From an uncultured Thermoplasmatales archaeon (GTDB lineage Archaea > Thermoplasmatota > E2 > UBA202 > DSCA01), in contig CAYPWJ010000001.1 in assembly GCA_964414415.1 (NCBI GenBank), positions 138,701 through 202,700 of the forward strand: a stretch of 64,000 nucleotides of DNA. The letters are read 5' to 3'. Position 1 is the first letter of the stretch. Each line of letters starts with the position of its first letter. This document shows positions 37,647 through 60,380 of this stretch, one piece after another. The notes under the pieces were generated by a model. The model had not been told where the DNA came from. It saw nothing but the letters and a program-made list of their open reading frames with translations, and did no database searches. Both the position numbers and the translations under genes were made by a program.

Positions 37647-38090
37647 ATGTCATTTCAACTGCAGGTGACAAAAAACACGCCGCTCACCGGAGAAGACGAC
37701 TACGAGGAGGTCGCGGTGCAGTTTCTCAGACAGATAGGCTATCTGTCCAAGGGAGCCGGCACCTCGTCGATTGCCTACCGGCTCTTCGAATGTTTTCTGC
37801 TCCACCCCGGCAAGGAGTGGCAGGTGGACGAGCTGGCCGTCGAGCTCGACGCGACCAAGGCCACGGTCTACCGGCATCTCAACAAGCTCAAGGGCCTCGA
37901 CATCCTCGAGGAAGGAACAGCCGGCGAGGGAACCAAGCAGCGGAAGACATACCGCCTGCGCTACGGCAACCTCGCCAAGGCTTGGAACTTCGTCGAGGCG
38001 CACGTCAAGGTCGCCATGGACAACTATGCCGAGACCGTCGCTCATTTACACACGCTGGTTAAACGGAGGGTAATCGATGGACGAGATTGA
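37647..38090 (+). CDS. winged-helix transcriptional regulator
   Basis: wHTH-like ELAVELDATKATVYRHLNKLKGLDILEE. Confidence 0.5.
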   Translation: MSFQLQVTKNTPLTGEDDYEEVAVQFLRQIGYLSKGAGTSSIAYRLFECFLLHPGKEWQVDELAVELDATKATVYRHLNKLKGLDILEEGTAGEGTKQRKTYRLRYGNLAKAWNFVEAHVKVAMDNYAETVAHLHTLVKRRVIDGRD

Positions 38091-38343
38091 ACTGGTCGGC
38101 GGCGAGGCCTGCATCGTCCGCTCACAGGATGCAAGCGAAGACCCACTTGAATCGCAGGGAACACTGGAGGGATTCACCTACATCGGCAAAGACGAAGCGC
38201 TGTGCATCCGCCTGGGCGAGGAGCACGACGAGCTGGCTGGCAAAACCAGGGTGATACCGGTCGGCAACATCATCTCCATCGATCTGCTCGACGGGAGGAC
38301 AAAGCGAAGCAAAGCAGGCGATCCGGACCACTACTTCGGGTGA
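38077..38343 (+). CDS. small hypothetical protein
   Basis: 88 aa, acidic. Overlaps its neighbours by 14 nt upstream; the downstream gene starts 5 nt after its stop. Confidence 0.3.
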   Translation: MDEIELVGGEACIVRSQDASEDPLESQGTLEGFTYIGKDEALCIRLGEEHDELAGKTRVIPVGNIISIDLLDGRTKRSKAGDPDHYFG

Positions 38344-38347
38344 CCCG

Positions 38348-39535
38348 ATGAGCATGCAGATCGGCATCGTGGGGAAGCCAAACGTCGGCAAGACCACCTT
38401 CTTCAACGCGGCTACCAACGCCGGCGGCGAGATGGCCTCCTACCCGTTCACCACCATCGACGCCAACCGGGGCATCATGTACGCCCGAACGGAGTGTCCC
38501 TGCCAGGACTTCGACGTTGAATGCAATCCACGGAATGCGGTATGCCGGGACGGCATCCGCTACGTGCCCATCGAGGCCATCGATGTCGCCGGACTTGTCC
38601 CAAAGGCCCATGAAGGACGCGGTCTCGGCAACAAGTTCCTGGACGATCTCCGGCAGGCCTCCTGCCTCATCCACATCATCGACGCGTCCGGTTCCACCAA
38701 CGCCGAAGGCGAACTCTGCGAGATCGGCGCGCACGACCCATGGCAGGACGTCAAGTTTCTGGAGGAAGAACTCGACCACTGGATACATGGCATCACAACC
38801 CGGGACTGGGACCGTATCAGCCGGAAATGCGCCCTCGAGGACAAGAAGGCAAGCGCTGCCCTCGCCGACAGGCTCACCGGGCTTGGTGTCAGCGAGGCGG
38901 ACATCACGCTGGCGATGCGGAAAACCGGGCTTGAGGGCAACCCGACGGCGTGGACGGACGACGACATGTTCAGTTTGGCCGCAGCCATACGAAAGGCGGG
39001 CAAGCCCATTCTCCTGTCGCTCAACAAGGCCGACAAGGCACCGGATGACCTCGTGGCAGAGCTGTCAGGCGATGCAGCGATTCCGACTGCGGCGGAGGCT
39101 GAGCTCGCGCTCACCCATGCAGCCGAGCACGACATGATAGACTACCGGCCGGGCGATGACTCGTTCGAGATATGCAGCGACGAGATGAGCGAGCGGCAGC
39201 GGAAAGGCCTTGAGTACATCCAGACGCACGTGCTTGACAAGTACGGCGGCACCGGCGTCCAGCGGTGTATCAACCATGCGGTGTTCAGCCTGCTCGACCT
39301 CATCGCCGTCTACCCGGTTGAGGACGAGACACATCTCACCGACAAGGACGGCAACGTGCTCCCCGACGTGTTCCTGGTGCCCCGCGGCTCGACAGTCGTC
39401 GATCTCGCCTACAAGGTCCACACCGACCTCGGCGAGGGATTCATCCGGGCCATCGACGCGCGAACCCAGCGCGTCGTCGGTCACGACCACGAGCTGCAGG
39501 ACGGGGACATCATCCGCATCGTGGCGAAGAAATAG
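38348..39535 (+). CDS. Obg-like/YchF-family GTPase with C-terminal TGS domain
   Basis: G1 [13 protein letters not shown]3 DVAGLV, and C-terminal TGS ([10 protein letters not shown]). Confidence 0.85.
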
Positions 39536-39550
39536 GCATGAGATAGGCTG

Positions 39551-40984
39551 TTACGAGATGGAGCATGCCTGCTCGGCCACCTGCCGGTATGCATCCTGGT
39601 TGTTGATGCAGCCCGGGTCGGCGGCCAGGTAGTCGCCCGTGTAGCCGTAGGCCCTGGCACGGCAGCCGCCGCAGTAGTAGCGGTACGCACAGTCGCTGCA
39701 GGCGTGCAGCTGGTCCTTGTCGCGGAGCTGCTGCAGCACCTCGTGGTGTTTCCATAGCTCCTCGAAGTCGTCCTCCCGGATGTTGCCGACCTTGAGCGGG
39801 AAGAACACGCAGGGCTGCAGGTCGCCGTTCGCCTTCATCGCCATGTAGAACCGGCCGGCGCCGCAGCCGCCGATGAACTCGGCGAGATCGGCAAGCTGCC
39901 CGCCCAATGTGGGATTATAAAAATGTGTCGGCACAGTTTTCTCGTCGGCGTCGCCCTCCTCCTGCAGGGCCACCCGTGCGAACTGTGGCGCCGTGGACAG
40001 GACGTTGATGTCCCGGTCTTTTTTGAGCTCCTGCCAAAGCATGTGCAGCATCTCCTCCCGCTGCTCGGGCGACAGATCTGTGTCGGCGATGTCGCTGCCG
40101 CGGCCGGTCGGCACGAAGTTGTAGGCCATGAACCAGTCGGCGCCGAGCCGTTCGCTGAAATCGATGATGTCGGGCAGCTGCCGATAGTTGTGGCGGGTCA
40201 CCGTCGTCGATATCTCGACGAAGAAGCCGCGGGCGACGACGTTCCTGACGCCCTGCACCGTCCGGTCGAAGGCCCCGTCGACACCGCGGAACGCGTCATG
40301 GGTCTCCGCGTCGATGCCATCCAGGCTGATTTGCAGGAAATCGACGCCGTTACGTTTCATCCGGTCGGCCATCTCCCCGGTGATGAGCGTGCCGTTGGTC
40401 GCGATGGCCACATACATCCCCGTCGCTGCGGCATGGCTGGTGAGCTCGAAGATGTCGTCGCGGACCAGCGGCTCTCCGCCGGAAAACGCGAGGATGGTAA
40501 CGCCCGCCCGGGCGAACGCGTCGATGGCTCGCTTTGCCTCCACGGTGTCGAGCTCGTCGACGCCTGCCTTGCCGGCGGTCGCGTAGCAGTGTCTGCATTG
40601 CAGGTTGCAGTCAGTGGTCACATCCCAGACGATCTGGAATGGCGCCCCGGGCGTAAACGGCCTGTTGACACCAAACGCGGCGATGCCGCGAACCGTCGAG
40701 GCAAGCCCCTTCGCCCAGTACCCATTGCTAAAGGTCTCCTTAATCTGTCGTTCATCGACATCGAATGCCGCGGCGCCACGGCGGAGCACGCCGGCGACCA
40801 CCTTCTCAGCCATCCGGCAGGCGATACAGGCGTCATCCCGCCGTCCGGTATACAGCTCAACGGCGACCTCTATCCTGTTTTTCTCGTCTTTCTCGCAGTA
40901 GGTGCTCATATGTTTGAGGAGCGTCCGGGCGGCCGGGTTGCCGATGGTGCTTTGCAGCAGCTGTATCGTCGCCTGCGTTTTCAT
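39551..40984 (-). CDS. radical SAM / SPASM-domain enzyme with ~105-aa N-terminal extension (peptide-maturase-like architecture)
   Basis: CNLQCRHCY (CxxxCxxC) begins about residue 118. C-terminal SPASM Cys clusters (CGAGRFY..QPCVFFP; CSDCAYRYYCGGCRARAY). 477 aa. Confidence 0.85.
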   Translation of the reverse strand: MKTQATIQLLQSTIGNPAARTLLKHMSTYCEKDEKNRIEVAVELYTGRRDDACIACRMAEKVVAGVLRRGAAAFDVDERQIKETFSNGYWAKGLASTVRGIAAFGVNRPFTPGAPFQIVWDVTTDCNLQCRHCYATAGKAGVDELDTVEAKRAIDAFARAGVTILAFSGGEPLVRDDIFELTSHAAATGMYVAIATNGTLITGEMADRMKRNGVDFLQISLDGIDAETHDAFRGVDGAFDRTVQGVRNVVARGFFVEISTTVTRHNYRQLPDIIDFSERLGADWFMAYNFVPTGRGSDIADTDLSPEQREEMLHMLWQELKKDRDINVLSTAPQFARVALQEEGDADEKTVPTHFYNPTLGGQLADLAEFIGGCGAGRFYMAMKANGDLQPCVFFPLKVGNIREDDFEELWKHHEVLQQLRDKDQLHACSDCAYRYYCGGCRARAYGYTGDYLAADPGCINNQDAYRQVAEQACSIS

Positions 40985-41400
40985 GTCTCCACCTCTTTCA
41001 TGTTTTCCAGGAACCGGATGGAGCGGTTTACCATGTCGAGCACGTCGTCGACGCGCTGCCGGCGAGCGTCGTCGAGCCGCTGGATTGAGCGCGCTGTCTG
41101 CCGCAGCAGCGAGATGAAGCGGTGTACCTCCTCCTTGACAATGCGGGTTAGATCCGTCGTCAAGAAGTAGATGTTTTTACGTCCATCTCGGCGTTTGCCG
41201 ACGTGACCGAGCTTGATGAGGTGGTTGAGCGCGTTGATGGTGGTGGAGTACGCGTAGCCGGTCTCCGCTGCTATCTCCCGGGCGGTCATGGGTTCATCTG
41301 CGAGGGCCAGCGCTGTATAGATAGATGAGTCGATTTCTTCGAAGCCGCCGTGGCTGAGCACGTCTTTTATGTTGTGTTTGACATGCCGTATTGCCGCCAT
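40981..41400 (-). CDS. HTH transcriptional regulator (TrmB/MarR-like winged helix)
   Basis: wHTH segment MTAREIAAETGYAYSTTINALNHLIKLGHV. 4-nt overlap with the downstream rSAM gene. Confidence 0.6.
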   Translation of the reverse strand: MAAIRHVKHNIKDVLSHGGFEEIDSSIYTALALADEPMTAREIAAETGYAYSTTINALNHLIKLGHVGKRRDGRKNIYFLTTDLTRIVKEEVHRFISLLRQTARSIQRLDDARRQRVDDVLDMVNRSIRFLENMKEVET

Positions 41401-41433
41401 GCTATCCCTCCCGTGTCTTTTTGAAATATCAAA

Positions 41434-41474
41434 GATATGATATCTATCATATTAATGATATTCATAATATATAA
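41434..41474 (-). promoter_or_regulatory. candidate promoter plus operator upstream of the HTH-regulator/rSAM operon
   Basis: Minus-strand TTTATATA about 65 nt upstream of the ATG. Between TATA and start lie GATATGATATC and the inverted repeat TATCAT-ATTA-ATGATA. Confidence 0.4.
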
Positions 41475-41579
41475 ATGTTGTGCACACGTTGGCGCTTTCT
41501 AGTTTTGTGGGATTTACACATCAAAAACACTGACAGGTTACTGAAAGAGAAAAAGAAGGGATAAGAAGGTTCTGTCCGG

Positions 41580-41945
41580 CTAGAAGCCGCGTTCGGCGAT
41601 GTCGCCCACGACGGGGAGCTTGAAGCGCTCTCCCTGGTAGGCCTTGAACATGAGTACGAGCCAGAGGATGAGGGTGAGCAGCCAGAGGAGGGTACCGAGG
41701 AGAGACAGGAGAGCCCATATGCCTAGTCCCCCATACAACAGCGCGCCGCCGAACATGAAGCCGCCGCTGAAGATGAACGACAGTATCGAGAGCGGCAGAA
41801 ACGTCAGGATGGACTGCCGTGCGTGGAAGCGGACGAACTCGTTGTCTTTCTCGACCAGGTAGAACACGATGCCCGTCAGCCATCCAAGCAGATAGCAGAG
41901 GGCGCCTTCAACGTTTTCCTCCATATTGAGTGAGGTCTGTGCCAT
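41580..41945 (-). CDS. DUF4870-family small membrane protein
   Basis: Motif VFYLVEKDNEFVRFHARQS and 3 TM helices. Confidence 0.55.
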   Translation of the reverse strand: MAQTSLNMEENVEGALCYLLGWLTGIVFYLVEKDNEFVRFHARQSILTFLPLSILSFIFSGGFMFGGALLYGGLGIWALLSLLGTLLWLLTLILWLVLMFKAYQGERFKLPVVGDIAERGF

Positions 41946-41949
41946 GGAT

Positions 41950-42147
41950 TTAGCTCCGTTTTCTTTTCGTTGTGAAGTATAACAGCATTACCCCGATAGC
42001 ACCGAATAGAGAGAGCACTTCGAAACCAGGCATTCCACCATTTCCTCCATTCCCTGTACCATCTGTGCCATCGTCTCCTCCGCCCGTGGCGTCATCATCT
42101 GTATCTTCATCACCTGCTACTAAAACACTTCTTCGTATCATACTCAT
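41950..42147 (-). CDS. minimal PGF-CTERM protein (65 aa: short N-terminal hydrophobic segment, Asp/Gly/Thr-rich linker, PGF-TM-KRKR tail)
   Basis: ...GGMPGFEVLSLFGAIGVMLLYFTTKRKRS is a canonical PGF-CTERM archaeosortase sorting signal. Start at Met32 of ORF 41950..42240. Confidence 0.5.
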   Translation of the reverse strand: MSMIRRSVLVAGDEDTDDDATGGGDDGTDGTGNGGNGGMPGFEVLSLFGAIGVMLLYFTTKRKRS

Positions 42148-42391
42148 GTTTTCCTGTCTCCTCTCCGCACAAAAGAAGTAACCGTTTATAATTTTTAGGA
42201 TTTTTGCCTCATCTCGAACCGCTTCGAAACGATTTAACAAGCCATGGCGCTGGCTTCCACCTAGTTCAACGGCAGCTGACGTTCAACTATGATACTCGGA
42301 AGGCATTGTTAATATGGAGAAGCTCTATCAGACAGCCTGTGACACAGATAGGACCAATGGCCACTAAGGCCCACACGTAATCCGTGGATAC

Positions 42392-43975
42392 CTAGTTGAT
42401 TCCGTCTTTTCTCTTCAGCCATACACCGAGGGCCAGCGCCGTCACCAGCAGTCCCGTCTGTAGACCGGGGATACCTTCCCCTCCATCGTCGTCTTCTCCT
42501 GCACGTGTTTGTTCGCTTACCACGTTTGACATGGGCGAAACATTTGGAATTTCATCTGCTGTCTTCAGAGCGAAATAGTAGGTGGTATCGGCATCCAGGT
42601 CGGACACCGTATAGGTTTCCTTGTCTCCTGGCTGTTGTGGAATCGGCTGCGTGGCTGCTGGTGTAGCATCTGCCCAGCCATCGGCAGTTATCGACGTGGT
42701 GGCGTATCGTAGATCATAGCTGCTTGCAGTCCCCATCTCCATGTTGTCTCCTGGGGCAGTCCAGGTGAGCGTGACCGAGGTATTGGTAGCCTGGGTCGCC
42801 TGAAGGTCGGTTACCTTGCTCGGCCATGTTGCATCAGCGGCTGTATCGAAGAAAATGTTTCCGTCGTCTCTGCTATCCTGCCATACAATGTATGTTTGGG
42901 TGTCAGCACCTACCGCTATAGCAGGATGGCCAGCTGCTTCAGATCCATCGTTTACCTTGAAATTTTCACCAAAAGTTGTTCCTCCATCGGTTGAATTTGC
43001 GAAATAGACTGCGTCTTCGCCGCTGGAGTCATCTTGCCAGATTACAAAGATTTTTCCGCATGGATGAACTGCTATATCGTTAGGATAGCCGCCGGATAAG
43101 GTTGACGCTGAGGTGTGGCTCACATTAACACTTGATTGGAAGGAATCTGCACCATCGGTTGAACGTGTAAATCGTGCCTTTTTCAGATCTCCTTTATCGT
43201 TCCAGTAGGACATATATACTTTATCTGTTCCATATGCTGCGATGGATGGCCCGGACATGCTGTCGCCGTCCTCAACTACAACGCTGGGTCCAAACGTCGA
43301 GGCCTGATCGGTGGATTTAACAACACGTATATTGGAATCACCGAAGCCTAAACCATTATCGTAGGCTACATAAATGGTCTCATCGGAGCCAATAGCGATC
43401 GCTGGATCGCCTGGTCTGTCTTCGGGGCTGTTCACTCTGACATCTGTTCCAAATCCTTCTCCGTTTATGGATCTATCCAGAGATAGGTTTTCCAAGTGTG
43501 AGGCTGTCCATACGATGTACACATTATCTTCATAGGTGGCGATGTCGGGGTTGTCGCCCCCATGGCTGTCGCTTATTATTGTTGGATCGCTGAAGGTGTT
43601 GCCTCCATCTGTGGATTTTGTATAATAGACGTTGCCTTTATCTGCCACTGTGACATGAATATTGTCGCTGTCATCAACTGCAATAGATGGTACATATCCA
43701 TCGCTGATGTCTATGGGGTCGCTGAAGGTTTCTCCGCCGTCGGTAGACGTAGCAAAGGTTACTGCGTTCCAGGCTAGATATATGTTATCGGAGCTATCTA
43801 GTGCTATATCTGGTTTTCTTCCATACCCTGGACTGGCATGTGTGTCTGTTCCAAAGTCTTCTGCCCTCGCGTTGTGAACGTCACCGCAGAGGGTGTACAT
43901 CACGCCGATCAGCATCACAAGAACCATCACAGTTAGTACTTGTCTCTTATGGATAACTCTTTTAATTTTTTTCAC
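42392..43975 (-). CDS. secreted BNR/Asp-box repeat (sialidase-like beta-propeller) surface protein with FN3-like domain and PGF-CTERM-like anchor
   Basis: Signal peptide. Eight or more S-x-D-x-G-x-T-F/W Asp-box repeats (STDGGETF, STDGGNTF, STDQASTF, STDGADSF, STDGGTTF). C-terminal ...GIPGLQTGLLVTALALGVWLKRKDG. Lower GC than its surroundings. Confidence 0.75.
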   Translation of the reverse strand: MKKIKRVIHKRQVLTVMVLVMLIGVMYTLCGDVHNARAEDFGTDTHASPGYGRKPDIALDSSDNIYLAWNAVTFATSTDGGETFSDPIDISDGYVPSIAVDDSDNIHVTVADKGNVYYTKSTDGGNTFSDPTIISDSHGGDNPDIATYEDNVYIVWTASHLENLSLDRSINGEGFGTDVRVNSPEDRPGDPAIAIGSDETIYVAYDNGLGFGDSNIRVVKSTDQASTFGPSVVVEDGDSMSGPSIAAYGTDKVYMSYWNDKGDLKKARFTRSTDGADSFQSSVNVSHTSASTLSGGYPNDIAVHPCGKIFVIWQDDSSGEDAVYFANSTDGGTTFGENFKVNDGSEAAGHPAIAVGADTQTYIVWQDSRDDGNIFFDTAADATWPSKVTDLQATQATNTSVTLTWTAPGDNMEMGTASSYDLRYATTSITADGWADATPAATQPIPQQPGDKETYTVSDLDADTTYYFALKTADEIPNVSPMSNVVSEQTRAGEDDDGGEGIPGLQTGLLVTALALGVWLKRKDGIN

Positions 43976-44051
43976 CTATTTCTGGATAATAGATATGTCG
44001 AGGTTTTAAATACATTGCGAGCTGCTGGTTTATCGTCAGAGAAAAAGGTGC

Positions 44052-45041
44052 CTATCCCTCGAAAACAATCTGCTGTTTGTGCTCCAGCTGCATCGTCGGC
44101 GATGCAGCGGGCTCCTCGCGCACGGCCTCGTTGTAGGCTGCTTCCCCGCCTGCCTCCGCCAGCACTTTTTTTCCAGCCGTTATCTGCTGCTGGATGTTTG
44201 CGTTGACTTTCTCTATCGTGCCCGGCGCCACAATATGGGCGAGCTTCAGCAGCAATCCAAGGCCGTAGGGGAACGACTCACGGTGCATCAGCGACCGCGG
44301 CTTCGGGGCAAACCACACCCCGATGGAATCCTCGCCGAACGTCGTGATGGGGATACCTGCAGCGGCCTGCCGCTCAGGCGTCGGCCCGACATCCACGACC
44401 TCCCAAGAACCATCCACGTATACCTCACCCTCGCCGTGCAGCATAAAATAGCCAAGCGCGTCGTACCATTCCTCCATGACCGGGTTGACGATGAAGGTGT
44501 CGCTCCAGGCATCGATCATCTCAGGTGCATAGAGCTTGTACCGGGCCTTGATGCCGGCTGCCCGGCACAGCGCCACGAACACCGATATCTCGTGGAGGCA
44601 TGTACCCGTCCCGCGCTGCAGCGTCGCCGAGACATCGTCCATGGGCAGCATCTCCAGTGTTATCTCCCGCTTTACAAAGTCAAATGCCCGCTCGGCAAAC
44701 GTCCGATCAGGCACCTCAAAGGCGCCCAGCTCGTTGGCCATGGCCACAACCTCGGGAGTGTGCGAGTTGCAGTAGAGCGTGGGACGCAGATATCGTTCAT
44801 CGCGGTCGCAGTACGGCATATCCGCATCGTAGGCGGGAAGCTCATACCGCCGCGGCGGCCGGACGTAGCCCGGGTCGTCGTCATCGCTTTTCCTGAGGGT
44901 CCGGAGTGCCGCAAGGTTCGTGATGGCTACCTTGCCAAGCGATGACAGCCCTTTTACCATGAGCTGCAGATATGTGCTCGATGGCATGTATCCCTTCTTT
45001 TTCATCTCTGCAAGCCCTGTCATGAAGCGTCCCCTGCCCAT
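44052..45041 (-). CDS. transglutaminase-like superfamily protein (papain-fold Cys-His-Asp core)
   Basis: Core GTGTCLHEISVFVALCRAAGIKARYKLYA. Paralogous to 59331..60380. Confidence 0.7.
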   Translation of the reverse strand: MGRGRFMTGLAEMKKKGYMPSSTYLQLMVKGLSSLGKVAITNLAALRTLRKSDDDDPGYVRPPRRYELPAYDADMPYCDRDERYLRPTLYCNSHTPEVVAMANELGAFEVPDRTFAERAFDFVKREITLEMLPMDDVSATLQRGTGTCLHEISVFVALCRAAGIKARYKLYAPEMIDAWSDTFIVNPVMEEWYDALGYFMLHGEGEVYVDGSWEVVDVGPTPERQAAAGIPITTFGEDSIGVWFAPKPRSLMHRESFPYGLGLLLKLAHIVAPGTIEKVNANIQQQITAGKKVLAEAGGEAAYNEAVREEPAASPTMQLEHKQQIVFEG

Positions 45042-45093
45042 CGCTGTGGATGCGTGTAAATGACGGGTGAATTATAAATGTTGTCTCTCTGCC

Positions 45094-45297
45094 TTAATCG
45101 CTCTTTTGGTAGGTGTAGTTTATCTCCCGCTGGATAGACCGATAGAGCTTGGCGCCTTCTTGCAGGACGTGCCGCTCCATGAGCACCTCGAGCGCCTGCT
45201 CACCAACCACCTCCATGAGCTCCTTTATCTCCTCGGGATGGGACTTCGCATATTTCACGATATTTTCCACGCTTTCTTCATCGAGTGTAATTTTCAT
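45094..45297 (-). CDS. small helical hypothetical protein
   Basis: 67 aa. No domain. Confidence 0.3.
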   Translation of the reverse strand: MKITLDEESVENIVKYAKSHPEEIKELMEVVGEQALEVLMERHVLQEGAKLYRSIQREINYTYQKSD

Positions 45298-45353
45298 GGT
45301 CTTACCTCGTGAATGGCAACAGCTTCGGTCTTAAAGCTTTTGTGCCCTCCCGG

Positions 45354-45980
45354 TCACTGCCGTCGTCTGCTGACCGATACCAGCACTGCAGCGAGACCGC
45401 CGAGCACCAGAAGCAACGTGAAGCCGGGAACACCGCCATCTCCGCCGTTTCCCCTGTTGATGTCGGGGGCATATTCCTGCGGAGCCCAGTCCTGCCAGTA
45501 TTCACCGCTTGTCTGCCGGCTGTAGCCGGACGCCGCCCAGCCTTTGAATGACACCCTGCCGTCGCTCCCCAGCAGTTCCACGCTGGCGGTAATCGTGTCA
45601 CCCGTAGCGGAGACGTTGCCGAATCGCACGTCATTGGATCCTCTGGCCATGTGGGTGCCGCTGCCGTTTACGTAGGTCATCGTGTACGTTGCATCGCTGG
45701 TGTTATATTCCGCCCAGTACCATACATCATCAGCCTCCTCGATTTCTCCCTGGACGGTCATCGTCAACATCAGCATGTCTCCGTCGACCATATACGACAG
45801 CTCCGTAATGTCGATGTTAGGCCTGTCGGTCACGGCGTGTGTCCATGCATACCCTTCCATGTTTTCGCTCCATTTCCAGTGGAGCACGTCGTCGGTGTCA
45901 TCGTCAACCGTTGCAGCATCCGCAAGACCAGCGCCGAGCAGTGCCATCACCATCAGTCCACATACAAGCATATATCTCAT
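45354..45980 (-). CDS. secreted PGF-CTERM protein
   Basis: N-terminal signal/TM (MRYMLVCGLMVMALLGAGLA) and C-terminal ...GGVPGFTLLLVLGGLAAVLVSVSRRRQ. Confidence 0.6.
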   Translation of the reverse strand: MRYMLVCGLMVMALLGAGLADAATVDDDTDDVLHWKWSENMEGYAWTHAVTDRPNIDITELSYMVDGDMLMLTMTVQGEIEEADDVWYWAEYNTSDATYTMTYVNGSGTHMARGSNDVRFGNVSATGDTITASVELLGSDGRVSFKGWAASGYSRQTSGEYWQDWAPQEYAPDINRGNGGDGGVPGFTLLLVLGGLAAVLVSVSRRRQ

Positions 45981-46021
45981 GTCATCCTCCGGAACCATAT
46001 CACAATCGGCGTATATATAGA

Positions 46022-47149
46022 TTACATATATCTGGAAATATATCCGGAAAACGGAAGAAGGAAGCGGAGCAACGACGGATGCCGCCTGACGACTTCCTTC
46101 GCCACCCGCACCGGATAATCGATGTCTCCATAGGCAGTGATGGTAGCCGCGATGTCCTCATCTACCGCCTCCACCATCGCGTCCATCTCCCTATCTGAAA
46201 GGCCGACGAAACGCCTGTAAAGCCATCGACTTCGCTTGAGCTCCCCCCCGTAGCGATGCATGAACAGACGGCGGTAGTCGACAGAGCCGTCCTTCATCGC
46301 GTCGGCGAGACAATGAGCAGCCACCAGTCCCGGGTAGAGTCCGCCGCCCGACGTCGCCTTGACCTGGCCGGCTGCATCGCCAATCAATGCAGCGTCAGGC
46401 CGGCAAAACCGCCGGCGCATCCCCGCGGGAATGAGACCGGCCTGAACCTCGTCCTGTTCAACACCCAGGGAGGAAAGCAACCGCCGGAAATAATGCATCA
46501 CCCCGGCCCCGGCGGAGACACCCAATCCCAGCCTCGTCGTGTCGCCAGCGGGGATACGCCAGGCGAAAAAACCCGGTGCAACGTTGCTGCCCACCCATAT
46601 ATCAACCTCGTCTCTTTCCCTCATTCCTCCATCGGCAGAAACGACGGTCTGCAATGTCTGCACATGCCCCCGCGGATCCGGAAAGCGGAGGGCCGAGGCC
46701 GCAAAGCTGCGGACGCCGTCAGCCCCCACCACATACCGACACCGTACGCTGTCCCGCCCGGTGACCATATAGCCGTCATCCGATATATCTAGGCCGGTCG
46801 CCTTCCACGACCGGCGGATGTCGACACCAGCGGCGGCTGCACGCTCAGCGAGCGCCCGGTCAAATGCACGCCGGTCGATGGCAAGGGCGTGCGTCCGATC
46901 GCCACCGATGTGCAGTGTTCCCCCGCCGGGTGCATGGACAACGGCGCCGGTTATCTCCTGGCTGACGACATCGCCGTTCAGCCCTGCAAGGTCGAGTACG
47001 CGCGGCGTCACCAGCCCTGCGCACCGCTCAGGTACACCGATACTGTCATGCTCCTCGAGGACAACGACACGGTAGCCCTGAACAGCGAGCAGTCGGGCCG
47101 CCGTACACCCGACAGGTCCGCCACCGATGACAGCTACATCGCAACACAT
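46022..47149 (-). CDS. geranylgeranyl reductase family flavoprotein (digeranylgeranylglycerophospholipid reductase-like)
   Basis: FAD motif VAVIGGGPVGCTAARLLA and GGR-family length/pattern. Confidence 0.8.
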   Translation of the reverse strand: MCCDVAVIGGGPVGCTAARLLAVQGYRVVVLEEHDSIGVPERCAGLVTPRVLDLAGLNGDVVSQEITGAVVHAPGGGTLHIGGDRTHALAIDRRAFDRALAERAAAAGVDIRRSWKATGLDISDDGYMVTGRDSVRCRYVVGADGVRSFAASALRFPDPRGHVQTLQTVVSADGGMRERDEVDIWVGSNVAPGFFAWRIPAGDTTRLGLGVSAGAGVMHYFRRLLSSLGVEQDEVQAGLIPAGMRRRFCRPDAALIGDAAGQVKATSGGGLYPGLVAAHCLADAMKDGSVDYRRLFMHRYGGELKRSRWLYRRFVGLSDREMDAMVEAVDEDIAATITAYGDIDYPVRVAKEVVRRHPSLLRFLLPFSGYISRYM

Positions 47150-47456
47150 CAGGTTTAAGTATTTGCTCCCTATTTATACCTTCATCGGTATGATACCTCT
47201 GGCGTGCCTGGCGTTTCTCGTCAACAGGAAAAAAACCCGTTCGCTGCTCTCTCGCTTCGTCGTCGACAAGAACGGCAACCGGGTAGGCGAAAGCATCTCT
47301 GTCTACCGGGATCTGCTCATCATCAAGCGAGCGGGCGACTACTACGCGGTGCCGCTCAAACACGTCGATGCATCAGGCGACGAGCTCAGGGTCAAAGGTG
47401 TCGTCCAGTGGGAAAAAGCGGCCGAGATGGCAGAGGAGTGGAAGCAGCGTGTATAA
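47127..47456 (+). CDS. hypothetical protein with N-terminal TM
   Basis: ORF only. Overlaps the GGR gene 3' end by 23 nt. Confidence 0.3.
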   Translation: MTATSQHIRFKYLLPIYTFIGMIPLACLAFLVNRKKTRSLLSRFVVDKNGNRVGESISVYRDLLIIKRAGDYYAVPLKHVDASGDELRVKGVVQWEKAAEMAEEWKQRV

Positions 47457-47457
47457 G

Positions 47458-47793
47458 ATGGCCATCGTGACGCCCGAACTGGCCATATCCGAGGGCAAGC
47501 TGGCGGCGCAGGTCGCTCACGCGGCGGTGGAATGCGCACTCAGATTACACAGGAAAAACCCGTCGCTGCTGCAGAAATGGCTCGACGAGGGACAGAAAAA
47601 AGTAGTGCTCGGCATCGGCGACAAGGACATCCACCGCCTCCGGAGCAGGGCCGTGTCGATGGGCCTCTGCACCGCGTTGATCACAGACGCTGGCCGCACA
47701 CAGCTCGAGTCCGGCACCGTCACGGCCCTGGCCATCGGCCCCGCAGCAGAGCGCACGGTGGACAAGATAACCGGGCAGCTTCCCCTGAAATGA
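47458..47793 (+). CDS. pth2: peptidyl-tRNA hydrolase PTH2
   Basis: MAIVTPELAISEGKLAAQVAHAAV is the PTH2 signature. 111 aa. Confidence 0.85.
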   Translation: MAIVTPELAISEGKLAAQVAHAAVECALRLHRKNPSLLQKWLDEGQKKVVLGIGDKDIHRLRSRAVSMGLCTALITDAGRTQLESGTVTALAIGPAAERTVDKITGQLPLK

Positions 47794-48359
47794 AACGAGA
47801 GATTCGCATTCTGGGCGTCGACGACATGCCGTTCACCTTTGACGACGAACGCGTTGGCGTCGTCGGCATCGTCATGCGTGGCAACCATTACATCGAGGGG
47901 GTGCTCCACACCGACATCGCCGTCGACGGCATCGACGCCACCGAGCGGCTCGCTTCGCTCATCTGCTCCTCCAAGCATGCAGGTCAACTCCGCGCCGCCA
48001 TGACAGATGGCGGTGCACTCGGCGGCTTCAACGTTGTCGACGGCCAGCAACTCAACGAAGCGACCGGCATCCCGGTGATGACGGTCACCGCGAACAAGCC
48101 AGATAGCGAGGCGCTCATCACCGCCCTCAAGCAGCATTTCGACGACTGGGAGAGCCGATGGGCCATCCTGCAGAAGGGAGACCTGCACCGGGTGCCGTTG
48201 CGATACCCGCTCTACGTCAAACCATTCGGTCTCACGCTCGACGAGGCAACCGAGATACTCCGGCTCAGTCTGCTCAGGGGAGCGCTCCCCGAGCCGCTGC
48301 GCGTCGCACATCTCGTTGCTACGGGCATCAAGACCGGCGAGTCATACGGCCGGCGGTGA
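47790..48359 (+). CDS. DUF99/UPF0215 family protein
   Basis: MKREIRILGVDDMPFTF... pattern. ATGA overlap with pth2. Confidence 0.6.
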   Translation: MKREIRILGVDDMPFTFDDERVGVVGIVMRGNHYIEGVLHTDIAVDGIDATERLASLICSSKHAGQLRAAMTDGGALGGFNVVDGQQLNEATGIPVMTVTANKPDSEALITALKQHFDDWESRWAILQKGDLHRVPLRYPLYVKPFGLTLDEATEILRLSLLRGALPEPLRVAHLVATGIKTGESYGRR

Positions 48360-48395
48360 CCCGAACCGTTATAGCCAGCCCGGCATTGCATCGAC

Positions 48396-48734
48396 ATGCG
48401 CATCTGGGACGTCCCGCCGGGGGAGCTCTGCCGCCTGCATCTGCTCGGTGAACACAGGGAGCTCCACGCCATCTGGAGCATCCTGGTCAACGACAAAAAA
48501 GGATACCGGCGGCATCCCGAGGTGCAACGATGGGAAGGCAAACTGGCGGCGCTCTACCGCCGGCACGTGTCGCTGGTCGAGGAGATGCAGCGGCGGGGAT
48601 ACCGGCATGCCAGCCCGCTGGACGCGTCCGAGGCAACGGGCAGCAGCGAGCAGGACTGCTACGTGGACGGCGACGGATGCCCCGCGAGAAGCCGTGCAGT
48701 TGCCCGCGAAAAATTTAGAAAAAGTATTATATAG
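48396..48734 (+). CDS. pyrimidine-dimer DNA glycosylase-like (Pyr_excise family) protein
   Basis: LLGEHRELHAIW motif resembles the T4 endoV/DenV family. Confidence 0.45.
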   Translation: MRIWDVPPGELCRLHLLGEHRELHAIWSILVNDKKGYRRHPEVQRWEGKLAALYRRHVSLVEEMQRRGYRHASPLDASEATGSSEQDCYVDGDGCPARSRAVAREKFRKSII

Positions 48735-48876
48735 TCATTCCATTGGCTTTCCATGGGATGGGATGAGTCATCGATACAGGAAGTGTCGACACGCATACGT
48801 GATTTTCTGGAAGTCGAGGTCGAGGTCTGCCGTGACTGCAAACAGAGCGTGAAGGGCCCCTTCGACTGACCCGGCG

Positions 48877-49398
48877 TTATCGCTCGAGGGTCTTTCCGTA
48901 GGCGAACAGGTCGCCGGCCTGGTAGATGTCAAGCTGGACCTGCGACATGGGCTCCAGCGTTGCAACCGTGTCGCCGTCCCGTGTGACAGCGCCGCTTTCA
49001 ATGTCGACGGATATGGTATCGCGGTTTTCCAGCTCCTCCGGTAGCTCGCCCGTCAGGACGGGCAGCCCCGAGTTTATCGCGTTGCGCTTGTAGATGACAC
49101 CGAAGCTCTTCGCGACGATGGCCTGAACGCCGAGCGATATGAAGCAGTCGACGGCCTGCTGCCGGCTGCTGCCCGACCCGAAGTTTTCGCCGGCTGCCAC
49201 GATGTCGCCCGGCTCGGCGCGTTCGGCGAAGTCTTCCCAGCCGGTCAGGTTATCCAGCGCATACTGGCCCATCTCGTCGACGTCGGTGATGTGGAGATAC
49301 TGGTTGTGGAATATCATGTCGGTGTCGATGTTGTCGATGAGTTTGCCGCTGTCGTCGCAAAGCATCCATACTCGTCCTGTCAGCGTCGTTGGCTTCAT
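48877..49398 (-). CDS. leuD: 3-isopropylmalate / homoaconitate dehydratase small subunit
   Basis: Aconitase swivel domain (GENFGSGSSRQQA). Confidence 0.85.
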   Translation of the reverse strand: MKPTTLTGRVWMLCDDSGKLIDNIDTDMIFHNQYLHITDVDEMGQYALDNLTGWEDFAERAEPGDIVAAGENFGSGSSRQQAVDCFISLGVQAIVAKSFGVIYKRNAINSGLPVLTGELPEELENRDTISVDIESGAVTRDGDTVATLEPMSQVQLDIYQAGDLFAYGKTLER

Positions 49399-50642
49399 GC
49401 TGCACCTCCCAGGTAGCCGGTCAGGGCGGCCTTAGCAGCCGTGGCTGGACTGGCAAGGTAGGTCTCACCGGGCCCCTGTTTTCCCTTGAAATTCCGGTTG
49501 GAGGTGGACACCTGCACCTCCTGCCGGCCGGTCATGCCGATCTGGCCGGATGCACAGCCGCCGCAGCCGGGGTTGGATATCAATGCGCCTGCCTCATGCA
49601 GGTCGCGGAGGACGCCGCTTTGCAGCATCCTGTCCCACACTTCTCTGGTGGCGGGGACCACCTTGGCTGTGATGCCATCTGCAAGGTGGTTGCCGCGCAA
49701 CACGTCCGCCGCGGCCTGCATGTCCTCGAAGCGGCCGTTGGTGCAGGATCCGATGAACACGGTGTCGATGGCGACGTCGGACAGCGAAGCGGCAGGCGTT
49801 ACGTTGGCTGGGTTGTACGGTGCCGCTACGAGCGGCTCAAGATCGGAGACGTCTATCTCGATTTCTTCGCTGTACGAGGCATCCTCGTCCGCGTAGACCG
49901 GCTGGACGTCGCCGCCGCTGCGCTCCCGGCAGAACTGCAGCACCTCCTTGCTGGGCGGAATGAAGCCGATGATGCCGCCCATCTCGGTCATCATCGACGA
50001 CAGCGTGATGCGACCGGCAAGATTGAGCTCGTCGATGGCGTCACCCTCGAACTCGACGGCTTTGCCCAGGGCGCCGGTGCTGCCTATCTCGGAGAGCACC
50101 TTCAGGGTCAGGTCCTTGGCGCTCCACTCGCCGTCCGGCATGCCGGTGAAGCGAATTTTCATCGACTCCGGCATCTCGAACCACGTGCGGCCGGTCTTGA
50201 AGGTGAACGCGATGTCCATGTCGCCCATGCCCTGTCCGAAGGCGCCGACGGCGCCGACGATGTTGTAATGGCTGTCCGTTCCAACGGCTGTCACGCCCGG
50301 TGCGATGTGGCCCTGCTCGAGCATCACGTGGGTCCCGATACCTTGGTCGACGTCGTAGACCGGCACGCCGGTGTCGCGGGCGAAGCGCCGGCAGACGTGC
50401 TGGTTGTCTGCATACGCCGGCGTCTTAGCCGGGGCGTTGCAGTCAAACGTGAAAGCGGTCTTTGCAGGATCTGCAACGTAGTCGCCGTCGTAGTGATGCT
50501 TGAGATGTTTGACGACGCTGGCGCCGCCGAAGTCGCGGGCTGTCCTGAGGTCGATGTCGAGCCATATAACGTCTCCCGGTTCCGGTGACACATCGCTGCT
50601 GGTGTGCTGCGCGAATATTTTTTCGAGGATTGTCTTTCCCAT
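49395..50642 (-). CDS. leuC: 3-isopropylmalate / homoaconitate dehydratase large subunit
   Basis: Aconitase catalytic domain with Fe-S Cys residues (GSCTNGR, NPGCGGCASG). 415 aa from MGKTILEKIF. The rest of the 796-aa ORF upstream is antisense to mtaB. Confidence 0.9.
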   Translation of the reverse strand: MGKTILEKIFAQHTSSDVSPEPGDVIWLDIDLRTARDFGGASVVKHLKHHYDGDYVADPAKTAFTFDCNAPAKTPAYADNQHVCRRFARDTGVPVYDVDQGIGTHVMLEQGHIAPGVTAVGTDSHYNIVGAVGAFGQGMGDMDIAFTFKTGRTWFEMPESMKIRFTGMPDGEWSAKDLTLKVLSEIGSTGALGKAVEFEGDAIDELNLAGRITLSSMMTEMGGIIGFIPPSKEVLQFCRERSGGDVQPVYADEDASYSEEIEIDVSDLEPLVAAPYNPANVTPAASLSDVAIDTVFIGSCTNGRFEDMQAAADVLRGNHLADGITAKVVPATREVWDRMLQSGVLRDLHEAGALISNPGCGGCASGQIGMTGRQEVQVSTSNRNFKGKQGPGETYLASPATAAKAALTGYLGGAA

Positions 50643-57967: not shown

Positions 57968-59350
57968 GTGTCATTGTTTGTGGCCATGCAAGTGATACCT
58001 GAAACCACTGGGCGGCTGTCGAACAACCTGACAGACCGGTTTTTGGTCCCCCGCGAGCGATGGATGACCATCGACTCTATGATTTACGGCATGGACAATT
58101 ACTTTGATTACGATGCGGGGAGCGCCAGAGAGAAACGCACGACGGCTATCCGTGAGGCCTTCGAACATCATTATTCTAACAACCTGTTTTATCATCGGTA
58201 CTGCAGGGACAACGACGTCCGGCCAGATGACATCAAAACGGAGGACGATCTCACCGCTATTCCCATGGTTCCGGACAATTTTTTCAAGGATTACCCGGAG
58301 GAGAACCCGAAGAGCGTCTATGAATGGCTGTACCGTGTATCGTCGGTCAACGTAGGAGACTACGATTTTTCCGGCAGCGGCCTGCAGGATTTTCTCCGCT
58401 GGGCGGAACATCGCCTGCGGGGCATCGTGACACATTCCTCGGGCACCACGGGCAACTTCAGCATAATGTTCCGGGATCAGTTGACCACGCAACGGTTGTT
58501 CTATGCATTCGACAAGACGCTCCTCTTCTCCATCGTGCATCCCGATGACGATGCACAGTTCGTATACCCGGGTCCGATCAAAACATATCTCACCATGGGG
58601 CACTGGATATCGGAGGGCAGCCAGGTGTTCGACGACAGCCAGCGTCATTTCCTCACGGATCGGGAGCTGACCATGGACATCGTCCGGCTTATGTCCGGCC
58701 AGATACGCGGCCTCAAGGACAAGCTGAAGCTGAAGCTGCTGCAGCGGGCCATGAAAAAAGGGCAGCAGAAGCTGATACAGCTGCTGGAGAAAATGGACAA
58801 AGCGGACAAGCAGGTAATCATCATCACGTTTCCCTTCCAGCTCTACGACCTCATGGAGCTCATGCGGGAGGAGGGCGTCAGCCTCTCGCTGGGCGATCAG
58901 AACAGCATCGTCATCACCGGCGGTGGATGGAAGATCCACCAGGGAAAGAAAGTCTCACCGCAGACATTCGCTGGCATGATAGAGGAAACACTGGGTATCC
59001 CCCCGGAGCATTACAAGGACATATACGGCATGTCTGAGATGAACGCCCTGGGCATGGACTGCGAGGGACGATACAAGCACCTGCATCCCTGGCTCTATCC
59101 AATGATCCTCGACGAAGACAACCAGCCAAAGGGCTACGACCAGACGGGCCGCTTCGCGTTTCTGGATCCTGTCTCCCACAGCTATCCAGGGTTCATCATC
59201 ACCGGCGACCGGGTGAAGCTCTATGAACGCTGTCCCGCCTGCGGCCGGCCGGGCGTAGTGATGGATTCAGATATCAGTCGGATGTCCGGCGCCGAGGCGA
59301 AGGGATGCGGCAACCTGATGCGGGATTTGATTGCCGAGGAGCTGCGGTGA
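57968..59350 (+). CDS. adenylate-forming enzyme, LuxE acyl-protein synthetase / PaaK / F390-synthetase-like (ANL superfamily)
   Basis: P-loop-like THSSGTTGNF and GGGWK motif. The true start may be Met33 at 58064. Confidence 0.65.
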   Translation: MSLFVAMQVIPETTGRLSNNLTDRFLVPRERWMTIDSMIYGMDNYFDYDAGSAREKRTTAIREAFEHHYSNNLFYHRYCRDNDVRPDDIKTEDDLTAIPMVPDNFFKDYPEENPKSVYEWLYRVSSVNVGDYDFSGSGLQDFLRWAEHRLRGIVTHSSGTTGNFSIMFRDQLTTQRLFYAFDKTLLFSIVHPDDDAQFVYPGPIKTYLTMGHWISEGSQVFDDSQRHFLTDRELTMDIVRLMSGQIRGLKDKLKLKLLQRAMKKGQQKLIQLLEKMDKADKQVIIITFPFQLYDLMELMREEGVSLSLGDQNSIVITGGGWKIHQGKKVSPQTFAGMIEETLGIPPEHYKDIYGMSEMNALGMDCEGRYKHLHPWLYPMILDEDNQPKGYDQTGRFAFLDPVSHSYPGFIITGDRVKLYERCPACGRPGVVMDSDISRMSGAEAKGCGNLMRDLIAEELR

Positions 59351-60380
59351 TACCATGCTCGGGAGACTGAAGGAAGAGATGGACAAGGGGCTGTTTATTC
59401 CGCTGCCGATGCTGAGAAACCTCCTAGGCGCCGTCGGTCCACTTGCGTTTGTTCTGGCCAAGCATCCACGGGCTACCCTGGCAAATGTTCCAGTGTGGAT
59501 GAAGCGCCTTCGCCGATCACAGCCACCGTGGGCGCATCTGGACGACGAGGATACATATGACGCGCGGCAGCTGCTGTCATCAGAGGACTACGAGCGTATG
59601 CCGTCCGTCCGGACAGAGAAGTATCTGCGGCCGACACGGCTCTGCGAGAGCGATGCGCCGGAGATACGGGCGATGGCCGGGAAGCTCGGCGCAGGTGAAA
59701 AAAGCGACCTGAAGTATAGCCGGGCTGTATACGAGTTCGTGAAAAATGAGAAAAAGCTGGTGTTCAAGCCGATGCGCGGCGCCCTAGGCACCTTCTGCAG
59801 CAAGGGAGGCGTCTGTCTCGACCAGCTCTCTCTCATGACCGCGCTTTTACGGGCTGGGGGTGTATCCGCTCGGTATCGCCTGTATGCGCTCTCTCCGACT
59901 GAGCAGTTTTACGATACGGTCATCAAGGATGATCCGCTGCTCCGTGAGACGCTCGAGATGCTGGGTTTCCTTGACTCCCTCCATGGAGAGACGGAGGCGC
60001 TGGTGGACGGAAAATGGATTGCGCTGGACGCAACGTTTTCCGACGAGCTTGAGGCGGGGATGGGGCTACCCATTACATCGTTCGGCGAGGAACCCATGTG
60101 GCGGGATCGGGTCCTGACCACGGACATCAGATTTGAGGGATTCCCGATATTGTTCAGACATCTGCTTGTTCCGATCCTGTTTGCACTGCGGAGCACCGTC
60201 GACGTGGTGAACACGAAGCTCGATATGCTGCGGGCGCAGGGGATGGAGACCATCGACCGGCTGGGCCGGGATGGGTACAACGAGCAACAGTCCGGCACCC
60301 AGATTGAGCTGCCGTCGATGGAGGAAGCCGAGGCGTTCAGGAACGGAGGGAAAATGACGGTTGACGCCGAAGCCGTGTAA
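59331..60380 (+). CDS. transglutaminase-like superfamily protein (paralogue of 44052..45041)
   Basis: Core GALGTFCSKGGVCLDQLSLMTALLRAGGVSARYRLYA. 20-nt overlap with the upstream adenylating enzyme. Confidence 0.7.
   Translation: MPRSCGDTMLGRLKEEMDKGLFIPLPMLRNLLGAVGPLAFVLAKHPRATLANVPVWMKRLRRSQPPWAHLDDEDTYDARQLLSSEDYERMPSVRTEKYLRPTRLCESDAPEIRAMAGKLGAGEKSDLKYSRAVYEFVKNEKKLVFKPMRGALGTFCSKGGVCLDQLSLMTALLRAGGVSARYRLYALSPTEQFYDTVIKDDPLLRETLEMLGFLDSLHGETEALVDGKWIALDATFSDELEAGMGLPITSFGEEPMWRDRVLTTDIRFEGFPILFRHLLVPILFALRSTVDVVNTKLDMLRAQGMETIDRLGRDGYNEQQSGTQIELPSMEEAEAFRNGGKMTVDAEAV

Follow-up and report, generated by a model that had tools for sequence, protein, structure and literature searches.

A small lower-GC surface-protein cassette, probably acquired horizontally, within the native gene order of an uncultured Thermoplasmatota archaeon

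Flexible genomic islands that carry surface-protein genes are known by their presence or absence at fixed intergenic slots, by their atypical composition, and by contig breaks at their edges. The substrates of the PGF-CTERM/ArtA system of Haloferax and methanogens, together with proteins of the Heimdall-CTERM and Loki-CTERM types, carry Pro-Gly-Phe, a hydrophobic helix, and a basic cluster at the extreme C-terminus, and in PGF-CTERM/ArtA substrates an acidic or Gly-rich linker precedes this tail on surface proteins bearing a Sec signal. Likenesses to both are found in positions 41401-46021 of a 64,000-nt stretch of DNA (the window) from an uncultured Thermoplasmatota archaeon. In this region, a cassette of about 2.1 kb, built around a gene for a beta-propeller surface protein with an FN3 domain (propeller-FN3), was probably acquired horizontally into the native backbone of an archaeon of about 60% GC. 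The backbone runs in the order geranylgeranyl reductase (GGR), PGF214, orf67, a transglutaminase-like (TGase-like) gene, (DUF4870), a TrmB-like regulator, a radical SAM (rSAM)/SPASM gene, and a GTPase. The lower-GC cassette, at 41946-44051, occupies the intergenic slot after the TGase-like gene and consists of an AT-rich promoter region, the propeller-FN3 gene, and a PGF-type tail fragment.

A previous sequence-only reading listed a DUF4870 membrane protein, proteins with PGF or PGL tails, a 527-aa propeller-FN3 protein, and a Cys-His-Asp TGase-like protein, all of which were found, and all the listed genes of the region lie on the minus strand, co-oriented and tightly packed. It also described a low-GC island between flanks of about 65% GC. 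The region is indeed the minimum-GC 4.6-kb stretch of the window, with a GC content of 0.524 versus 0.604 in the remainder (0.599 overall) and 0.568 for the next lowest stretch elsewhere, but its flanks lie at 0.60-0.62 and the dip is uneven. The cassette interval has a GC content of 0.482, the minimum among all 2.1-kb windows of the 64 kb, while 44052-46021 reaches 0.574, with 500-bp windows climbing to 0.60-0.61 in the TGase-like gene. AT-rich intergenic spacers (GC 0.35-0.38) deepen the dip. Codon usage was compared with a reference set of 42 window genes, whose GC content at third codon positions (GC3) is 0.753 +/- 0.070. In this comparison, the propeller gene (GC 0.49, GC3 0.47, z -4.0; Karlin B codon-bias distance z +3.3) and a small open reading frame (ORF) next to it (GC3 0.37, z -5.5) were atypical, whereas DUF4870 (0.81), the TGase-like gene (0.74), PGF214 (0.69), orf67 (0.68), and the helix-turn-helix (HTH) regulator gene (0.74) fell within the native range of GC3. 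For orf67, total GC is 0.50 despite its near-native GC3, which its Lys/Glu-rich sequence would explain. Because only the propeller gene and the small ORF deviate in codon usage within the region, foreign composition is restricted to 41946-44051, and the 4.6-kb region combines native with foreign DNA and does not form one island.

Gene order in related loci, designated here by L numbers, supports the same division. Orthologues of the TGase-like protein grade smoothly in identity (87, 82, 81, 80, 78, 62, 61...%; 541 matches), and those in relatives at 78-87% identity keep the same neighbour order wherever it is visible. L026 and L027 carry, in order, DUF5749, PTH2, Endo_dU, GGR, a 212-aa PGF protein, a 67-aa protein, the TGase-like gene, a TrmB-like HTH gene, rSAM, and a GTPase, with the TGase-like gene leading directly to the HTH-rSAM pair across a TGase-HTH spacer of 113 bp. 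The TGase-like gene is likewise followed directly by HTH-rSAM in L030, with no insert, and directly by the GTPase in L031. Three distinct relative sequences contain the series GGR, PGF protein, orf67, TGase, HTH, and rSAM, or the portion of it that lies on the contig, with nothing inserted. The propeller gene is present at the site in L028 (GCA_964594625.1), where it follows the TGase-like gene and matches the window's copy at 79% identity over 192 residues to the contig end, and it is absent there in L026, L027, L030, and L031. The 76-nt spacer between the TGase-like and propeller genes is about 84% identical between the window and L028 (64/76 aligned positions, counted from the alignment), and the propeller fragment of L028 has a GC3 of 0.49 within flanks of 0.76-0.84. 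Sliding nucleotide identity between the window and L028, used as a recombination breakpoint check, showed no sharp change at the TGase stop. From the conserved order in relatives, it follows that PGF214, orf67, and the TGase-like gene form a vertically inherited block, with the propeller gene in a variable slot. Shared synteny in close relatives, which the sequence-only reading had held to argue against recent transfer, is found for PGF214-orf67-TGase. The horizontal acquisition that had been proposed for the whole region is well supported for about 2.1 kb, the propeller-FN3 gene and the small ORF, and is withdrawn for the TGase-like gene, orf67, and PGF214, which combine native codons with conserved synteny.

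The homologues of the propeller protein point to lower-GC Thermoplasmatota. The closest ones outside the window's clade, at 72-74% identity, lie on Thermoplasmatota contigs of 35-37% GC, where their GC3 (0.24-0.28) is the same as that of the surrounding sequence and marks them as native. Their surroundings differ: the L023 homologue lies between a metallophosphatase and a 233-aa PGF-tail protein, the L024 homologue adjoins a DDE transposase, and the L025 homologue is in yet another unrelated setting, about 1.6 kb downstream of a response-regulator gene. Between the window and L023 and L024, synonymous divergence of the propeller gene is unsaturated (pS 0.57-0.61, dS 1.1-1.3), whereas core genes at 63-73% protein identity (rSAM versus L001/L002, GTPase versus L014, DUF4870 versus L001) are saturated (pS 0.82-1.02). 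Between the window and L028, the propeller gene has a dS of 0.52, against 1.04 (TGase), 1.08 (GGR and orf67), and 0.68 (PTH2), and on these sequence divergences the propeller copies of the window and L028 seem younger than the flanking genes. A scan of genome contigs with the rSAM/SPASM protein, whose best species-representative matches were Thermoplasmatales/Thermoplasmata metagenome-assembled genomes (MAGs) at 63-73% identity, yielded relatives at 73% identity or less, which are too distant for an insert synteny test and useful for GC context. Most of these relatives have a GC content of 0.31-0.39, with a few at 0.44-0.48. The closest relatives lie at about 0.60 (L026, L027) and 0.56 (L028), which places them and the window organism in a high-GC sublineage among mostly low-GC kin. 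The comparison of the window, L026, L027, and L028 with L001-L019 also indicates a marked GC shift inside this Thermoplasmatota group. Intermediate-GC relatives exist (L014 and L017, GC 0.44-0.48), and the propeller GC3 of 0.47 may come from an unsampled intermediate donor rather than from partial amelioration. The cassette was probably transferred horizontally from a lower-GC Thermoplasmatota lineage, and it is common to, or was exchanged with, the one sister lineage L028.

The propeller protein is predicted to consist of an N-terminal signal peptide, an Asp-box (BNR) beta-propeller, an FN3 domain, an acidic linker, and an anchor of IPGL, a hydrophobic helix, and KRK. Six canonical Asp-boxes of the form S-x-D-x-G-x-x-F start at residues 77, 121, 221, 272, 328, and 368, an fn3 domain is detected by Pfam (E 2.8e-9), and the Pfam BNR_2 score of 26.9 bits stays under the 31.4 gathering cutoff. 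The N-terminal hydrophobic region has a KD12 value of 2.95, a measure of hydropathy only and not the output of a dedicated signal-peptide predictor. The AlphaFold model (pLDDT 81.3) contains an N-terminal helix, seven strand groups, an Ig-like domain at about residues 385-490, a disordered acidic linker, and a C-terminal helix, and its best Foldseek matches, which share 10-15% identity with it (E 1e-13 to 1e-9), are to sialidases, GH145 enzymes, and the PHL lectin. A sialidase identity was ruled out, since the catalytic Arg triad with its Tyr/Glu pair is not conserved in the 16-sequence family alignment, where no Arg or Glu is invariant or at least 90% conserved and the conserved columns are Asp-box and core residues. 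From this domain order, the protein would be exported via Sec and then either stay in the membrane through its C-terminal helix and basic tail or undergo cleavage and lipid anchoring by an archaeosortase-type enzyme. A non-sialidase binding propeller would in this way be displayed on a stalk of FN3 and acidic linker, as a variable surface or adhesion protein, and its role is probably that of a Sec-exported, C-terminally anchored binding protein. Additionally, a TATA-like TATTTAAAA lies about 35 nt upstream of the gene's GTG start within the AT-rich junction 43976-44051, suggesting that the propeller gene probably has its own promoter. A separate promoter and terminator scan was set aside, as its bacterial consensus patterns are irrelevant to an archaeon and terminators were not enriched.

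The sequence-only reading had assigned the C-terminal tails of the region to PGF-CTERM. Their tripartite architecture was confirmed, with VPGF-TLLLVLGGLAAVLVSVS-RRRQ in PGF214 and MPGF-EVLSLFGAIGVMLLYFTT-KRKRS in the small ORF, while none of the three window tails matched NCBIfam TIGR04126 (PGF-CTERM, cutoff 24.5 bits) at E <= 10. The PGF214 tail passes Heimdall-CTERM (26.1 vs a cutoff of 24) and the small-ORF tail passes Loki-CTERM (23.5 vs 19.9). The propeller tail, IPGLQTGLLVTALALGVWLKRKDGIN, is composed of IPGL-QTGLLVTALALGVWL-KRKDGIN, with PGL rather than PGF, and this tail (IPGLQTG...) had no significant match among the sorting-signal models. Of six tails from relatives in the Thermoplasmatota, the Heimdall-CTERM model accepts four and the Loki-CTERM model three of these four, and the PGF_CTERM model appears for only two of the six, at 11.0 and 15.9 bits. 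The tails are therefore PGF-type tripartite signals and not members of the curated PGF-CTERM model. For a processing enzyme, no NCBIfam archaeosortase match was obtained among seven scanned ORFs of the window with multiple transmembrane (TM) segments; three of them, rescanned with Pfam, were TctA, SBF (weak), and DUF2085, and a fourth was a histidine kinase by NCBIfam.

The small ORF encodes only an acidic/Gly linker, PGFE, a hydrophobic stretch, and the KRKRS tail, ending in MPGFEVLSLFGAIGVMLLYFTTKRKRS. No N-terminal hydrophobic region was found in it by hydropathy, so it is not a plausible sorting substrate as encoded. Gene callers differ on it: the Logan call has the same frame and 65 aa, and the NCBI annotation places, by coordinate mapping, a 40-aa gene in another frame. 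The 233-aa PGF-tail protein that comes after the propeller gene at L023, a homologous locus of low GC, is a distant homologue of the window's native PGF214 (29% identity, E 4e-22). As a separate observation, positions 2502-4988 of L023, a relative of 36% GC, show that the propeller-FN3 and PGF214-related families are neighbours in two very different genomes. By its sequence, the small ORF is probably what is left of the 3' end of another PGF-tail gene, which came in together with the propeller gene and resembled the follower in L023. A tblastn search of the L023 233-aa protein against 41400-42500 gave no significant match, blastn of the small ORF region against the 3' end of the L023 gene gave weak colinear low-complexity matches (E 1.5e-4 to 7e-3), and tail-to-tail scores gave no discrimination for a remnant origin.

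Several points weigh against a horizontal acquisition of the cassette as described. Within the window, the insert lacks the usual marks of mobility, with neither an integrase or transposase (among the scanned genes) nor a tRNA or direct repeats beside it; the repeat search around the insert returned short chance-level repeats only and no target-site duplication, no tRNA lies in the 64 kb, and Rfam gave no match on 38000-50000. PADLOC gave no match on the island proteins except weak winged-HTH-type ones for the regulator, and a metagenome contig scan with the propeller protein returned a single locus at 25% identity, which is uninformative. The true donor is unsampled, the best outside homologues being merely 72-74% identical. 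The L028 contig ends inside the propeller gene, which confines the window-L028 comparison to 193 codons. DUF4870 is native in composition yet missing at the site in three relatives, leaving the ancestral arrangement and the right-hand boundary uncertain. The remnant status of the small ORF is without statistical support, and surface display, archaeosortase processing, and ligand binding of the propeller protein are inference only. Furthermore, other PGF-tail genes in relatives are also lower in GC3 (0.58-0.65; NosD-like 0.65, PGF183 0.58), so the compositional signal could partly be general to such genes. This last point also serves the alternative that no transfer took place, in which L026, L027, L030, and L031 have lost a propeller gene that was ancestral at this site and that owes its low GC3 to gene-specific constraints such as relaxed codon bias or surface-gene composition. 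The window and L028 share the junction and a similar GC3 (0.47 and 0.49) despite a flank dS of about 1, as such an ancestral gene would. This account is nevertheless improbable, since the propeller GC3 lies 4 standard deviations under that of the native genes, among which PGF214 has 0.69, synonymous sites have not reached saturation in the comparison with the 35-37% GC homologues, unlike those of core genes, the window-L028 propeller dS is half that of the flanking genes, and the homologues sit in unrelated contexts, one of them beside a transposase.

Table 1. Coordinates and main evidence for features of the window, in window positions.
Feature	Position	Strand	Evidence and remarks
Radical SAM/SPASM gene	39551-40984	-	477 aa; AhbD/NirJ-like, far under the cutoffs of those models
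TrmB-like winged-helix regulator	40981-41400	-	TrmB E 1.1e-9; stop overlaps the rSAM/SPASM start
DUF4870 membrane protein	41580-41945	-	PF09685 37.2 bits vs cutoff 25; 121 aa, 3 predicted TM segments
Small PGF-tail ORF	41950-42240	-	96 codons from TTG; 65 aa from ATG at 42147
Propeller-FN3 gene, surface protein	42392-43975	-	527 aa (511 aa from internal ATG); foreign composition
TGase stop/propeller start intergenic junction	43976-44051	-	GC 0.38, AT-rich
Transglutaminase-like (papain-fold Cys-His-Asp) protein	44052-45041	-	Transglut_core PF01841 37.5 bits vs cutoff 23
orf67, 67-aa helical Lys/Glu-rich protein	45094-45297	-	no hydrophobic segment; conserved; missed by the sequence-only reading
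PGF214, secreted 214-aa protein (predicted)	45354-45998	-	native GC3 0.69; ends VPGFTLLLVLGGLAAVLVSVSRRRQ
Geranylgeranyl reductase (GGR) family gene	46022-47149	-	TIGR02032 196.8 bits vs 158.8; syntenic in L026, L027, L028
LuxE-family acyl-protein synthetase gene	57968-59350	+	PF04443, E 9e-37
Second Transglut_core gene, paralogue	59331-60380	+	35% identical to the island TGase; immediately after LuxE

The TGase-like protein, to which the sequence-only reading had tentatively assigned envelope cross-linking or processing, belongs to a family of about 323 aa that is widespread in Thermoplasmatota. Its true start is likely M7, at about 45023, giving 323 aa. The triad is C148, H202, and D217, with C148 invariant across the family alignment, and the AlphaFold core matches the putative cysteine protease 3ISR, TgpA, TG2, and FXIII, while a PDB sequence search with the family profile returned no match. 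The H202/D217 pair covaries, a subclade having Glu at 202 and His at 217 with Cys148 unchanged; judged from the alignment, this subclade may carry a rearranged catalytic triad. No signal peptide or TM segment was found in the protein, the maximum 19-residue hydropathy being 1.3, at the catalytic-Cys helix, and the N-terminus of the family is a conserved amphipathic helix; the protein is probably cytoplasmic. Orthologues at 51-60% identity have LuxE, Nramp, or PLP-synthase (SOR_SNZ) neighbours and no adjoining PGF protein, and they lie directly downstream of a LuxE-family gene wherever the upstream side is visible, in three lineages (L032, L033/L034, L035/L036). With neither an export signal nor PGF neighbours in these distant orthologues, which follow LuxE, envelope cross-linking by the TGase-like enzyme is unsupported.

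These results bear directly on the proposal that the whole of 41401-46021 is one acquired cell-envelope module whose TGase-like enzyme cross-links or processes archaeosortase substrates. The co-oriented, tightly packed genes, their position in the lowest-GC 4.6 kb of the window, and the joint occurrence of PGF214, orf67, and TGase in the close-relative loci showing all three (L026, L027, L028) would suit such a module. It is, however, very unlikely, as the GC3 of TGase, orf67, PGF214, and DUF4870 is that of native genes, relatives keep the three-gene block in line with GGR and HTH-rSAM, the TGase-like protein lacks an export signal, and its orthologues at 51-60% identity never stand beside a PGF protein; synteny and codon usage have already largely refuted it.

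The adjacency to LuxE connects the TGase-like family with a cytoplasmic enzyme of acyl activation rather than with envelope proteins. The window itself contains a LuxE-family gene with a TGase-like paralogue behind it (Table 1), and LuxE plus a TGase-like gene is a recurrent two-gene module. A literature search on LuxE, transglutaminase-like, and archaea found no mention of it. In the window's clade, the upstream neighbour of the TGase-like gene is a 67-aa protein instead of LuxE, and orf67 resembles neither LuxE nor the small gene that precedes LuxE in L033. It is conceivable, though doubtful, that LuxE-TGase is an undescribed cytoplasmic two-enzyme module for acyl activation and acyl transfer (or for forming a thioester or amide), of which one clade copy exchanged LuxE for orf67 and a PGF-tail protein.

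The same DNA is present in NCBI assembly GCA_905333555.1 and in the Logan assembly of ERR5414699, and the TGase-propeller junction is identical in all three assemblies (the window, the NCBI MAG contig, and the Logan contig) and recurs in a different organism, L028. Both other assemblies (NCBI CAJOUV010000032.1 and the Logan contig of ERR5414699) stop 30-100 nt into DUF4870, at about 41847 and about 41913, which suggests strain heterogeneity or a repeat at the insert's right edge. That metagenome assembly or binning created the low-GC segment as a chimera, by joining DNA of a lower-GC organism into the contig, is barely credible: these two breaks near the low-GC right edge and the close homologues in lower-GC Thermoplasmatota would fit, but the junction recurs in three assemblies and, at about 84% identity, in L028, the segment's GC3 of 0.47 is unlike that of the sampled low-GC homologues (0.24-0.28), and the window contig crosses both junctions.

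Among the native neighbours of the acquired cassette, orf67 is 89.6% identical in amino acids to its counterparts in L026, L027, and L028 and is under strong purifying selection (dN 0.045 and dS 1.08 versus L028, dN/dS about 0.04). In each close-relative locus with the full gene, orf67 immediately precedes the TGase-like gene; it was called in L021, L022, L026, L027, and L028 and had no Pfam, NCBIfam, or PADLOC match. A plus-strand 81-aa ORF that overlaps it, at 45067-45312, is a shadow ORF. PGF214 is predicted to comprise a signal peptide (hydrophobic region with KD12 2.77, again hydropathy only and no dedicated predictor), a W/Y-rich domain of about 150 aa with an EYWQDWAP motif, a Gly/Asp linker, and a tail of PGF, hydrophobic stretch, and RRR. 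It is syntenic in L026, L027, and L028, and its family, an uncharacterised one of small surface proteins with PGF tails, has 388 cluster representatives at E <= 1e-3 and PGF invariant in the alignment; a PDB search with the family profile gave one chance-level match (E 0.067).

On the other side of the cassette, the DUF4870 gene begins 4 nt past the stop of the small ORF and is absent from the corresponding position in L026, L027, and L030. L001 has a homologue at 62% identity in another place, where it converges with a 1085-aa ORF that is taken here, as read from the sequence and without a search, to be the DNA polymerase II large subunit. The pair of TrmB-like regulator and rSAM is conserved in L001-L007, L026, L027, and L030, and an 18-nt inverted repeat that resembles an operator lies at 41425-41462, where the regulator's promoter region is. 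Another variable slot for a surface protein was observed beside Endo_dU, where L026 (3257-6565) and L028 (1-1587) carry a NosD/beta-helix protein. The L026 copy, between Endo_dU and Pyr_excise, is complete (about 1100 aa, GC3 0.65, with a PGF tail), the L028 copy is truncated by the contig end, and the window has only a 36-nt spacer there, at 48360-48395.

The locus illustrates, on a small scale, how surface-protein genes turn over at one intergenic position in uncultured Thermoplasmatota, with a probable transfer from a lower-GC relative into a high-GC sublineage. Its main worth is corrective: the composition dip had made seven genes look like one acquired envelope module, and comparison leaves one intact gene and a fragment as foreign. 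For annotation, it matters that the Heimdall- and Loki-CTERM models recognise PGF-type tails of Thermoplasmatota, which the PGF-CTERM model, trained on halophiles, misses, and the LuxE plus transglutaminase-like pairing is a modest lead to an uncharacterised enzyme pair.

Compared with flexible genomic islands, the insert differs in its size of about 2.1 kb, its one intact gene, and its lack of mobility genes or border repeats. Compared with PGF-CTERM/ArtA substrates, the tails of the window and its relatives fall below the TIGR04126 cutoff, those of PGF214, the small ORF, and four of the six from relatives pass Heimdall- or Loki-CTERM instead, and the propeller protein has PGL. The TGase-like protein shares with the PF01841 superfamily (3ISR, TgpA, TG2/FXIII) a papain-like core with Cys148, His202, and Asp217; it differs from the periplasmic TgpA in having no export signal, and its family is set apart from the superfamily by the lack of a sequence-detectable PDB relative, by the LuxE-type partner, and by the Glu/His swap in part of its members. 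The propeller protein, finally, resembles bacterial sialidases (GH33, Micromonospora viridifaciens 1EUT/2BER), GH145 (BT3686), and the 7-bladed PHL lectin in its Asp-box propeller, followed by an Ig-like domain, and it departs from the sialidases in having seven predicted blades rather than six, an identity of 10-15%, and no conserved Arg triad.

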